Source: an uncultured Pseudomonadota bacterium (GTDB lineage Bacteria; Myxococcota_A; Polyangia; Fen-1088). Taken from it: DNA of 64,000 nucleotides. Under the pieces are notes generated by a model that saw only the letters and a list, made by a program, of their open reading frames with translations, had not been told where the DNA came from and ran no database searches. Position numbers and translations under genes: made by a program. Position 1 is the stretch's first letter; each line of letters opens with the position of its first letter. Positions 35,795-37,855 of the stretch are shown here, piece by piece. Where the stretch lies: positions 876,649-940,648 of the forward strand of contig CAWFVU010000009.1 in NCBI GenBank assembly GCA_963819375.1. Direction: 5' to 3'.

Positions 35795-37855
35795 ATGTCG
35801 TCGAAAAACATCACCGTGACTGGCAAGGTCATGAAAGTCACCGCGCAAGACGCGGGACGCCTGGCGGTCTATGTCCTGCGTTGCAACCAGATCCTCGGCA
35901 AGGGGCTGGTACAAGCGGACGGGAGTTACCGCTTGAACCTGGCCCGCGCCGCCCTCGCCGCAAAGAGCGACTATGGACTCAGTCTCGCGCTCGCGCCGGC
36001 CAGCGCGGGCGACCACATCGAGCATTTGCCCGAGCTTCATCGAATTGCGCTCGAACGAGAGCACCTGGAGCGGGCGGACGAATTCAAGGGACCTAATCTC
36101 ACCGTCTCCGAGGCCACCCTCCGAATCTGGTGGCTCTGGTGCCGCTGGTTCTGCGTGACAGGCAAGGTGGTTGGACCGGATGGTTGCGCGGCGCCCGGCA
36201 CCGAGGTGACGGTGTACAGCGTCGCTCATACCGGGTTGGGTTATTCGAAGACCCCGCGGGCCACGGTCGTGACGGCGGCCGACGGCACATTTACGGCGTG
36301 TTTCGAATGGTGCACCTGCAGCGTCTGTATCCCCTGCTGGCCGTGCTGGCCCATTTGGTGGGAGTGCTGGCCGTGGTGGTGGGACTTCGACATTCTGAGG
36401 GTGATCGACGTGATCGAGCAGCGGCCACCGGTGGTTGGACCTGGCCCGGTCGAGGGATTGGCCAGCCGCGCCACTCTTATCCGTCCGGAGGCGAGGAGTC
36501 TCATGCGCGGTCAAGGCTTCGGACCCACCGAGGCCAATGCCTTCACGCCCGATTCCCAGCGCACCGCCCTCATCAAGAGCAAGTTCGCCGACCCGCGGAT
36601 TCGTGGCGCCTTCCCGTGGTGGTGGTGGTGCTGTGACGACCCCAACATCGTCTTCAGCGCGACCCAGAACGGGACCGTGATCCTCGACGAGAATCCCGCC
36701 ACGGAGACTCGGTGGTGTCTCGAGGACGGCAGCTCGGTCACTTTGGTGGGAGGATCCGCCACCAGCACGGTCTGTTCGCCGAAGTGTCCGCCGCTCTCAG
36801 GCTTTGTCTGGACGAACGTCGGCAACATCGATGTTTCTGACATCAGTCACGGCTACGCCCAGCTGCCGGCCTACGCCGCGTCCGACTACCGCGACATGGC
36901 CTTTGCCTACACCCTGGATCTCTACGGTCAGCTCGCCGTAGGCTCCAACGTCGCCTACTACCAGGTGGAGGCGGCGGCGTGGGTCGGGAATCCTGCGCGG
37001 GGTGGGGTGGCACCGGCGGCCGGCTCCGGGGCCCCGATCGGCGCGCCGCTCGATCACGTCGTCTATATCTACAACAACGACGGCACCTTCAATTCGAGCG
37101 CCACGGTTCGAATGGGCCCCTTCACCCAGTCGGGTCTGGTGAACCTCTACGCCACGCCGGAAGCGCGTCGCAATGGGCCAACCCCTCCAGGGCTGCTCCC
37201 CTTTCCGGCGGTGCCGGCGGGCGGCGCCGTCTACTGGGACAAGCAGGGACTGATGCTCGAGGCGCCGTCATCCACCCTGATCGGCGGCGCACCCACGGGG
37301 GCCGCCGATTCGACGGTCGTGGGCTACGACGCCGGCCTCGCGGCCGTTACGCTCACACCTGACCAACCGTTGACGCTGATGATTGATAACACCCCCTTGA
37401 CGACGACGAAGATCAACGGCATCACGGCCTGGCGGGCGCCAGGGGTTGCCGCCGCTCAAACCGGGACCGGGGACTGCCCCGCCTACGATGTCGGCCCGAG
37501 CGGCTTCGTATTGATCGACACCACCGTCTTCGACAGCAATGGTCATCTGTTCGAGTATTACGTCAACGCGGAGTGGGGACACGACCATCAAGGCGCGGTC
37601 ACGCCCCCCGGAGTCCGGGGCTACATCACCAATCCTCTGATAATCGGTCCAGATCCCAACACCGCGCAGAATTCATGGGTGGGCGGAGAGGAAGTGATGA
37701 CGTTTCCCGCCGCCACTCCCAATGTGCCCGTTCCCCCGGCCGATTGTTGCTACGAGTTCCGTATTCGCGCCGGCAAACGCGTGACCAACGGCTACGTCTA
37801 CCCAGGTTTAGGAGACTACGACTTCTGGACGATCAGTCTGAAGTTTTCAACCTGA
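35795..37855 (+). CDS. 686-aa protein with prealbumin-like N-terminal segment and extreme Trp/Cys-rich motifs
   Basis: Strong RBS. Contains FEWCTCSVCIPCWPCWPIWWECWPWWWDFD and FPWWWWCCDDPNIV. No signal peptide. Confidence 0.7.
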   Translation: MSSKNITVTGKVMKVTAQDAGRLAVYVLRCNQILGKGLVQADGSYRLNLARAALAAKSDYGLSLALAPASAGDHIEHLPELHRIALEREHLERADEFKGPNLTVSEATLRIWWLWCRWFCVTGKVVGPDGCAAPGTEVTVYSVAHTGLGYSKTPRATVVTAADGTFTACFEWCTCSVCIPCWPCWPIWWECWPWWWDFDILRVIDVIEQRPPVVGPGPVEGLASRATLIRPEARSLMRGQGFGPTEANAFTPDSQRTALIKSKFADPRIRGAFPWWWWCCDDPNIVFSATQNGTVILDENPATETRWCLEDGSSVTLVGGSATSTVCSPKCPPLSGFVWTNVGNIDVSDISHGYAQLPAYAASDYRDMAFAYTLDLYGQLAVGSNVAYYQVEAAAWVGNPARGGVAPAAGSGAPIGAPLDHVVYIYNNDGTFNSSATVRMGPFTQSGLVNLYATPEARRNGPTPPGLLPFPAVPAGGAVYWDKQGLMLEAPSSTLIGGAPTGAADSTVVGYDAGLAAVTLTPDQPLTLMIDNTPLTTTKINGITAWRAPGVAAAQTGTGDCPAYDVGPSGFVLIDTTVFDSNGHLFEYYVNAEWGHDHQGAVTPPGVRGYITNPLIIGPDPNTAQNSWVGGEEVMTFPAATPNVPVPPADCCYEFRIRAGKRVTNGYVYPGLGDYDFWTISLKFST

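Follow-up and report, generated by a model that had tools for sequence, protein, structure and literature searches.

A leaderless tryptophan- and cysteine-rich beta-sandwich protein and its three-gene cassette with a DUF1360 membrane protein

Cholesterol-dependent cytolysins carry the Trp-rich undecapeptide ECTGLAWEWWR, in which a cysteine and clustered tryptophans in a loop of a beta-sandwich have affinity for the membrane interface. In tryptophan zippers, cross-strand Trp-Trp pairs stabilise antiparallel strands. DsbB and VKOR are membrane oxidases with a CxxC motif, and the cytoplasmic E10R-A2.5L-G4L proteins of poxviruses form a thiol-oxidation relay. The DUF1360 family (PF07098; PHROG 781) has no known function; it also occurs in mycobacteriophages and among the sporulation genes of Bacillus. 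Here, we describe a gene whose product and partners can be compared with these systems. It is located in a 64,000-nucleotide stretch of DNA from an uncultured Pseudomonadota bacterium (contig CAWFVU010000009.1, positions 876,649 to 940,648), which is referred to as the window. The gene, called gene 1, encodes a 686-residue-long protein with motifs of consecutive tryptophans and cysteines (W/C motifs). Judged by sequence comparison, it opens a three-gene cassette that is conserved, horizontally mobile and without a described function. The second gene encodes a DUF1360 membrane protein, and the third a small protein that starts with the residues MCCG (MCCG protein).

The gene 1 protein contains 25 tryptophans (3.6%) and 19 cysteines (2.8%); for the remaining long open frames of the window, the respective values are 1.2% and 1.3%. 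Residues 106-310 include 18 of the tryptophans and 13 of the cysteines. The densest stretch of 35 residues holds nine tryptophans and seven cysteines, and this total of 16 compares with ten in the next-best open frame of the window. An earlier note, made from the sequence alone, had described the open reading frame, its extraordinary composition and a strong ribosome-binding site, and all three are borne out; the Shine-Dalgarno sequence AAGGAG precedes the ATG of gene 1 (Table 1). The 50 in-frame codons upstream of the start include no ATG, GTG or TTG and do not resemble a signal peptide. The G+C content of gene 1, 0.64, is near the window average. Searches of the whole window and of the intergenic region upstream of gene 1 against Rfam gave no matches, and a scan for promoters and terminators was uninformative.

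The W/C motifs are preserved in homologues. A search covering 5.8 billion proteins identified at least 256 close homologues of the gene 1 protein, the best 120 of which are nearly all full length and share 44-77% sequence identity with it. When 21 diverse full-length homologues (46-77% identity) are aligned, the invariant residues of motif 1 are C181, W182, C184, P186, W188, C191, W192, P193, W194-196 and D199, and those of motif 2 and its border are F273, P274, W276-278, C279, C280, P283 and N284. The cysteines of the motifs are kept in 119-122 sequences of a set of 122 homologues, and the motifs are invariant among full-length homologues spanning six phyla. Because of this invariance, the motifs are products of neither chance nor artefact, and a frameshift or sequencing error in gene 1, which the earlier note had named as the finding that would overturn its observation, is ruled out.

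Among 1.84 billion cluster representatives, a profile search identified 334 clusters at 50% identity, which include a distant full-length clade with about 22% identity. This clade comprises at least 855 members from Gemmatimonadota, Planctomycetota, Chloroflexia and Pyrinomonadaceae. Its proteins are 700-790 residues long, contain 16-38 tryptophans each, and carry the motifs WxWWxxWCR, DVDxxWWWW, FRWCCGWWPWWWWR and WPWxPWxPWxDCxP; one member has seven tryptophans in a row. To our knowledge, the tryptophan content of the superfamily, with up to 38 residues per protein and runs of four to seven, is among the most extreme that are conserved. Tryptophans 112, 115, 172, 185, 188, 189, 194, 275, 276, 278, 307, 481 and 628 and cysteines 116, 173, 175, 561 and 651 are conserved superfamily-wide, and the clade of the window has eleven further near-invariant cysteines. 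With well over a thousand sequence clusters, for the most part of soil and peat origin, the superfamily ranges across Acidobacteriota, Eremiobacterota, Gemmatimonadota, Planctomycetota, Chloroflexota, Proteobacteria, Actinomycetota and one cyanobacterium.

The sequences are already present in public databases, where the members are named "hypothetical protein" or "carboxypeptidase-like regulatory domain-containing protein". The gene 1 protein matches no Pfam or NCBIfam family above threshold, has nothing functional among its PHROGs matches, and has no match in PADLOC, as is also the case for the DUF1360 partners and for a PLC-like neighbour in the window. Sequence and profile searches of the PDB with the products of genes 1 and 3 identified no relatives (best E = 0.13). 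Literature searches with the motif strings and with terms for Trp-rich and Cys-rich proteins found nothing relevant.

The surroundings of gene 1 were compared by all-against-all clustering of open reading frames in 47 loci from genome representatives (loci are numbered with the prefix L), in loci obtained by exact protein look-up, and on a Burkholderia plasmid. A DUF1360 gene lies directly downstream of gene 1 in 43 of 52 distinct loci, or 43 of the 47 with usable downstream sequence, separated by 0-165 nucleotides. The DUF1360 partners are about 115-140 residues long, have three predicted transmembrane segments, and also match phrog_781; DUF1360 is their sole Pfam match. Two of the partners (L003 and L005) score 22.1 and 23.3 bits relative to the gathering score of 21 for PF07098. 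Two motifs of the partners are invariant: W-R-(V/I)-x-H/Y-L-L..E-x-G-P-W and C-x-x-C-(L/M)-S-x-W. Loop 1 is 27 residues long in 16 of 17 sequences and, with 3.2 lysines and arginines on average, is the segment richest in these residues. The literature searches on DUF1360 gave passing mentions alone, in which a link to a W-rich or MCCG protein is not described. Conserved open reading frames in alternative frames over the DUF1360 gene were rejected as spurious overlap products.

The MCCG gene follows the DUF1360 gene in all 43 loci except L032, which has no candidate, and L056, where the contig ends within the DUF1360 gene. It usually overlaps the DUF1360 stop. The overlap accounts for the (D/H)VLR C-terminus of the DUF1360 proteins, because GAT GTG CTG CGG reads ATG TGC TGC GG in the other frame; this C-terminus is absent where the two genes do not overlap. 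The MCCG protein is about 80 residues long, and its N-terminus is always M-C-C-G-(R/K)-x-R or one of the variants MxCCG and MCNCG. A conserved domain of about 50 residues, FEYVGRTALTVxGPxTGxRYRFDRPGARLxVDPRD, usually forms the C-terminal end. Since one subclade retains the N-terminus MCCGKNRQQF alone, followed by a Pro-rich tail, the Cys-Cys pair and the basic N-terminus are the universal element of the protein. Neither a leader, a lipobox nor features of lysis proteins were found in it, and nothing scored above threshold in Pfam and NCBIfam. In L022, the DUF1360 and MCCG proteins are encoded in one frame. The K/R-rich loop 1 (by the positive-inside rule), this fusion and the leaderless MCCG protein together suggest an N-out/C-in topology of DUF1360, which would place both its CxxC motif and the Cys-Cys of the MCCG protein at the cytoplasmic face.

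The trio of genes also occurs in the distant clade, in L058, L059 (an Ideonella locus with a 748-residue gene 1 product), L061 and L063. Plasmid p2 of Burkholderia sp. FERM BP-3421 (L060) carries the trio with a gene 1 of the close clade, and the annotated genes there are Bsp3421_RS00885 and Bsp3421_RS00890. Insertion sequence (IS) elements or a plasmid flank the copies in L001, L060 and L063, and identities of about 50% across phyla indicate that the cassette has spread horizontally. The annotation table of the RefSeq record for the Burkholderia plasmid does not list the MCCG gene, which lies at about 11570-11820, and the start of the Ideonella gene has apparently been called too far downstream, so that the MCNCG N-terminus is lost.

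The structure of the gene 1 protein was predicted with AlphaFold2 (AF2), a check that the earlier note had proposed. In the model, the protein is a chain of beta-sandwich and beta-rich domains, D1 to D4, with the W/C motifs in an insert between D2 and D3 (Table 1). A run with 21 sequences gave a mean per-residue confidence (pLDDT) of 78, and below 50 in the W/C region. A run with 115 sequences from both clades gave 91.3, with a predicted template modelling score (pTM) of 0.81. The N-terminal segment that had been called prealbumin-like corresponds to D2, a small beta-sandwich in the AF2 models that is compatible with the CarboxypepD_reg/transthyretin-like type (PF13620). The window protein has no match to PF13620 at E ≤ 1; some homologues have precomputed matches, which are weak and in part labelled faint. 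The CarboxypepD_reg label covers less than 10% of the protein, and the W/C insert, D3-D4 and the cassette have no counterpart in that family.

Foldseek comparisons of two models with the PDB and with BFVD retrieved generic chains of immunoglobulin (Ig), fibronectin type III (FN3) and macroglobulin (MG) domains alone, at TM-scores of 0.10-0.19; the matches include CD109, A2ML1, C3, RbmA, the HPI S-layer protein and phage fibre-like proteins. Like the chains of alpha-2-macroglobulin, CD109 and C3, of Vibrio RbmA and of the Deinococcus HPI S-layer, the gene 1 protein is a string of beta-sandwiches with optional paired cysteines. However, TM-scores to these chains are 0.10-0.18 at 6-10% identity, the chains lack a Trp/Cys-rich insert, and the gene 1 protein has no signal peptide. 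The global MG architecture of alpha-2-macroglobulin, taken as a TM-score above 0.5, was not found, as CD109 and A2ML1 scored 0.10-0.12 with 7-8% identity. A module of D3 (residues 332-454) recurs as repeats in giant beta-helix, Peptidase_C25 and FG-GAP proteins and is apparently an accessory beta-sandwich domain that has no name. Up to four copies of a homologous module were observed in P0242, P0245, P0255 and P0266, which are 1,786-2,721 residues long, and Pfam scans of P0242, P0245 and P0266 found beta-helix, Peptidase_C25 or FG-GAP domains. Such a make-up of right-handed beta-helix, Peptidase_C25 and FG-GAP domains is that of extracellular carbohydrate-active or surface proteins.

The cysteines of the gene 1 protein vary in pairs. 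Among 122 close homologues, positions 116 and 173 are both cysteine in 104 sequences, both tryptophan in 17 and both serine in one, with no mixed combinations. Positions 120 and 169 are both cysteine in 118 sequences, both threonine in two, and mixed in two. Positions 30 and 331 are both cysteine in 37 sequences and neither is cysteine in 85, again with no mixed cases. C175 and C178 are lost jointly in 33 sequences, with single-position losses of 34 and 36. C116 and C173 are retained in 16 sequences without C175 and C178, and therefore the two pairs do not form one site. Cysteine pairs of the distant clade covary with phi coefficients of 1.0, 0.95, 0.91 and 0.83. Covariation was uninformative for C181, C184, C191, C279 and C280 of the insert, which are too invariant.

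The residue numbers of the first two pairs have the same sum, 289 (116 + 173 and 120 + 169), which is the register of antiparallel strands and coincides with the AF2 strands 116-126 and 165-173. Therefore, C116-C173 and C120-C169 are cross-strand neighbours, and the models fit an arrangement in which they would staple the first and last strands of D2. Residues four apart along a strand are about 13 Å from each other, beyond the reach of one metal ion, which suggests two separate staples. The replacement of a cysteine pair by a tryptophan pair at a cross-strand position would be expected if both served as structural clamps, one as a disulfide and the other in the manner of a tryptophan zipper. 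The covariation thus fits cysteine pairs that probably serve as disulfide-type staples and not as a multi-cysteine metal cluster, and optional pairs such as C30-C331 look like accessory staples. We conclude that the Trp/Cys composition is probably in the main a stabilising and packing device. A metal/redox cluster, one of the roles that the earlier note had considered, is disfavoured, since gain and loss of the cysteines strictly involve pairs, for which W-W, S-S or T-T can substitute.

The gene 1 protein has no signal peptide: its N-terminus, MSSKNITVTGKV, leads directly into beta-strand 1, and the position of the start is conserved across homologues. The same holds for the superfamily, in which both clades start at the first beta-strand. 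The protein has no transmembrane helix, the best 19-residue segment reaching 1.07 on the Kyte-Doolittle scale. On the Wimley-White interfacial scale, however, the 19 residues 178-196 reach the exceptional value of -12.6 kcal/mol. The membrane insertion that had been suggested for the W/C region is thus not borne out in its strict form, and a weaker form, an affinity for the membrane interface, is consistent with this score. The likeness to the undecapeptide of the cholesterol-dependent cytolysins is one of composition alone: searches of the PDB found no match to the CDC/MACPF sequences or fold, and the motif of the gene 1 protein is longer and internal. The central unexplained feature of the protein is that it combines cysteine pairing of the disulfide type with a domain make-up of the extracellular type, yet is leaderless.

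The explanation that we tentatively favour, with a probability of about 0.35, is that gene 1 encodes a disulfide- and tryptophan-stapled protein that seeks the membrane interface, and that the DUF1360 and MCCG partners mature, anchor or release it. The W/C stretches would be a structural and interface module, and neither a catalytic metal cluster nor a peptide substrate. The cysteines would form pairwise disulfide-type staples, and two of these would hold together the strands at either end of D2. Clamping by aromatic packing would be the role of the tryptophans, consistent with the Trp-Trp pair in place of C116-C173 in 17 homologues. Together, the cysteine staples and the tryptophans may build a rigid insert between D2 and D3 with a very hydrophobic, interfacial character, by which the protein would dock on the membrane surface beside DUF1360. 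The CxxC motif of DUF1360 and the N-terminal Cys-Cys of the MCCG protein would then constitute a thiol-active site for oxidising, anchoring or releasing the gene 1 protein.

Several observations weigh against this explanation. The W/C motifs were modelled at moderate confidence. The covariation of cysteines reports contact and not oxidation state, and two-coordinate thiolates of Cu(I) or Hg(II) would covary alike. Disulfides normally need an oxidising compartment; however, all three proteins of the cassette lack a signal peptide, and the putative topology of DUF1360 sets its CxxC on the reducing side. Unlike DsbB and VKOR, which are marked by two cysteine pairs, a quinone site and 4-5 transmembrane helices, DUF1360 has a single CxxC motif, three transmembrane segments and no known cofactor site, be it for quinone or FAD. 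Four loci (L016, L020, L025 and L047), among them the sole cyanobacterial copy, that of Phormidesmis priestleyi ULC007, have neither a DUF1360 gene nor an MCCG gene in the flanking sequence available; therefore, gene 1 can exist without partners nearby. The DUF1360 gene of the window is itself frameshifted, so that the gene 1 protein may not strictly need it.

A stronger version of the explanation is that the cassette is a self-contained system that makes and handles a disulfide-stapled protein without Sec and Dsb, either by exporting a leaderless folded protein through or with a membrane complex of DUF1360 and the MCCG protein, or by a disulfide pathway at the cytoplasmic face that would be comparable to the poxvirus relay. 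This version is drawn by analogy and is rather doubtful. The cassette resembles DsbB/VKOR and the poxvirus relay in combining a membrane CxxC protein, a small Cys-pair protein and a substrate rich in Cys pairs that the usual periplasmic pathway would not reach. No homology of DUF1360 to the Dsb, VKOR or Erv families was found.

The cysteine pairs might instead bind soft metals, for example Cu(I), Hg(II), As(III) or Zn, or else an Fe-S centre, which would make the gene 1 product a metal-thiolate or redox protein of the cytoplasmic face; we regard this as possible but improbable. The sites would include C279-C280, C651-C652, the MCCG N-terminus and the DUF1360 CxxC, and the tryptophans could cap the metal by cation-pi interactions or serve electron or hole hopping. 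Vicinal cysteine pairs are typical of proteins that handle mercury and arsenic, such as MerA, MerT and ArsD. All three cassette proteins are leaderless and have conserved cysteine motifs, loop 1 and the L022 fusion point to a cytoplasmic location of the CxxC and CC motifs, and a COG0523 metallochaperone is encoded nearby in the window. However, the units in which cysteines appear and disappear are independent pairs and not sets of three or four ligands. The exchange of C116-C173 for W-W or S-S and of C120-C169 for T-T fits structural contacts better than ligands, and the optional pair C30-C331 (37 of 122 sequences) resembles an accessory staple. Furthermore, COG0523 is not a conserved neighbour, and no match to a metal-binding family was found for gene 1 in Pfam, NCBIfam or the PDB.

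It is unlikely that the cassette encodes a leaderless, membrane-attacking toxin or bacteriocin-like system, in which Trp-rich loops would bind target membranes in the manner of the cytolysin undecapeptide, DUF1360 would confer immunity and the MCCG protein would aid release. The order of the genes, a large leaderless protein, a three-transmembrane protein of about 115 residues and a small protein, is analogous to that of the toxin, immunity and lysis genes in colicin operons. The patchy distribution across phyla, the IS elements or plasmid at three loci, the strong interfacial propensity of the W/C loop and a cysteine pairing suggestive of an extracellular end state would also suit a toxin. 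By contrast, the gene 1 protein is too conserved for an arms race, with 44-77% identity across phyla and hundreds of invariant positions. Sequence and structure searches revealed no likeness in fold or family to toxins, MACPF/CDC proteins or colicins, PADLOC and PHROGs returned nothing functional, and the MCCG protein has neither a lipobox nor features of a lysis protein.

The proposal that the W/C stretch is a post-translationally modified, peptide-like region is not supported. It would be the substrate of enzymes that cross-link cysteines and tryptophans (radical SAM, MNIO, P450 or ATP-grasp), as in ribosomally synthesised and post-translationally modified peptides, and we consider this highly improbable. 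The earlier note had called for a check of homologous loci for such enzymes, and the check shows them to be sporadic and not conserved neighbours: they occur near only three to four of about 50 loci and are mutually unrelated. MNIO genes (MbnB/TglH/ChrH family) adjoin the cassette in two Eremiobacterota loci, L005 and L007, and in L007 the gene lies immediately upstream on the same strand, ending 18 nucleotides before gene 1. However, the two MNIOs share 27% identity and their genes are oriented differently, and each is adjoined by a small open reading frame for a single-cysteine protein of 71 or 79 residues, which may be read as its own candidate precursor. An MvdD-type ATP-grasp gene is near the Paraburkholderia copy, and a radical-SAM gene is near the closest homologue, P0002; the latter has a CofH_C domain, is next to a UbiA gene and looks like cofactor biosynthesis. 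The W/C stretch is internal to a folded 686-residue protein, and no organisation into leader and core was found in gene 1. The MNIO, ATP-grasp and radical-SAM genes were therefore rejected as partners of the cassette, being sporadic. The MNIO clusters abut the cassette at 7480-9982 of L007 and 5698-8736 of L005, with a gene for a BTAD regulator upstream of the cassette, and in Eremiobacterota they may have a lineage-specific functional link to it.

Least credible is the idea that gene 1 is an accessory of the low-GC PLC-like/COG0523 operon and belongs to a zinc/phospholipase island: the divergent arrangement in the window, a Zn_dep_PLPC match (E 6e-7), the CobW/COG0523 gene at 29712-30707 and the dip in GC agree with it, but homologues of the PLC-like, 471-residue and COG0523 proteins occur in none of about 50 loci and the GC of gene 1 is normal, so that the neighbourhood comparison has effectively refuted it. 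The remaining probability belongs to none of the explanations considered here.

The cassette in the window has intact genes 1 and 3 and a split gene 2 (Table 1). The two frames of the DUF1360 gene match positions 1-45 and 26-87 of a cassette-specific hidden Markov model (HMM) and contain the motifs WR(V/I)xHLL..E(D)GPW and CFYC. The C-terminal half scores 20.3 bits, just below the PF07098 cut-off of 21, because the gene is split. One G added to the run of seven restores the sequence ...LGTGWGGQLMDCFYCLSLW..., which is colinear with DUF1360 homologues. The shift of one nucleotide is either a homopolymer error of the assembly or a genuine inactivation.

Table 1 Features of the gene 1 cassette in the window and of the gene 1 protein (all on the basis given in the last column; AF2, AlphaFold2 model).
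Feature	Residues of gene 1 protein	Position in window	Strand	Basis
Shine-Dalgarno sequence AAGGAG		35780..35785	+	9 nt 5' of gene 1 ATG, sequence
Gene 1, leaderless Trp/Cys-rich multi-beta-sandwich protein, 686 residues		35795..37855	+	Open reading frame, alignment, AF2
Domain D1, beta-sandwich	1-100			AF2
Linker, Trp-bearing helix	106-115			AF2
Domain D2, CarboxypepD_reg/transthyretin-like beta-sandwich	116-173	36140..36313	+	AF2, covarying Cys pairs
W/C insert between D2 and D3, helix/loop	174-283			AF2, pLDDT 67-87 except variable linker 214-224
W/C motif 1, CIPCWPCWPIWWECWPWWWDFD	178-199	36326..36391	+	Sequence, alignment, composition
W/C motif 2, FPWWWWCCDDP	273-283	36611..36643	+	Sequence, alignment
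Domain D3, beta-rich, pLDDT >90	285 to about 465			AF2
Domain D4, beta-rich, pLDDT >90	about 478-686			AF2
Gene 2, DUF1360, split: N-half in frame of 37931..38086, C-half in frame ending 38268		37931..38268	+	HMM
G7 homopolymer, DUF1360 frame break		38052..38058	+	Sequence compared with homologues
Gene 3, MCCG protein, 85 residues, MCCGHGRRR...FEYVGATGLTVVGPATGARYRFDRPGARLQVDVRD...		38249..38506	+	Overlaps DUF1360 stop region by 20 nt

Outside the cassette, the neighbourhood varies among homologous loci. In the window, gene 1 is transcribed divergently from the PLC-like/COG0523 genes, as the earlier note had stated; the shared island that it had proposed is not supported, as none of those genes recurs at the homologous loci. 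The operon at 29712-34716 on the minus strand has a GC of 0.57-0.60, the value to which the window dips at 29-36 kb, and encodes proteins of 913 and 471 residues and the CobW/COG0523 protein. The weak Zn_dep_PLPC match of the 913-residue protein spans its residues 224-303, and the 471-residue protein has no family. The operon is uncharacterised and unrelated to the cassette. Downstream of the cassette, the window encodes an intradiol-dioxygenase-like protein with Dioxygenase_C and a weak CarboxypepD_reg match (39316-40272, minus strand) and a secreted-looking Cys-rich repeat protein with three DUF4215 repeats (40454-41392, plus strand). In five Acidobacteriota loci (L010, L012, L027, L038 and L046; Acidobacteriaceae, Terriglobales and one Bryobacteraceae), genes for an ECF sigma factor, an anti-sigma factor, a protein of about 310 residues without a family and a CHAT-TPR protein of about 900 residues lie 0.5-6 kb from the cassette. 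This set was rejected as a part of the system because it is restricted to that clade.

The cassette appears to match no described system, and the function proposed for it is putative. Four carriers are in culture: Burkholderia sp. FERM BP-3421 (plasmid p2), Paraburkholderia sp. MM5496-R1, Ideonella sp. BN130291 and Phormidesmis priestleyi ULC007. Knowledge of its function would give DUF1360 a role and explain how a leaderless protein with paired cysteines matures, and it might supply a very stable and compact tryptophan/disulfide scaffold for protein engineering. If the cassette is a system independent of Sec and Dsb, it would provide the first function for DUF1360 and a new Trp/Cys "staple" domain.

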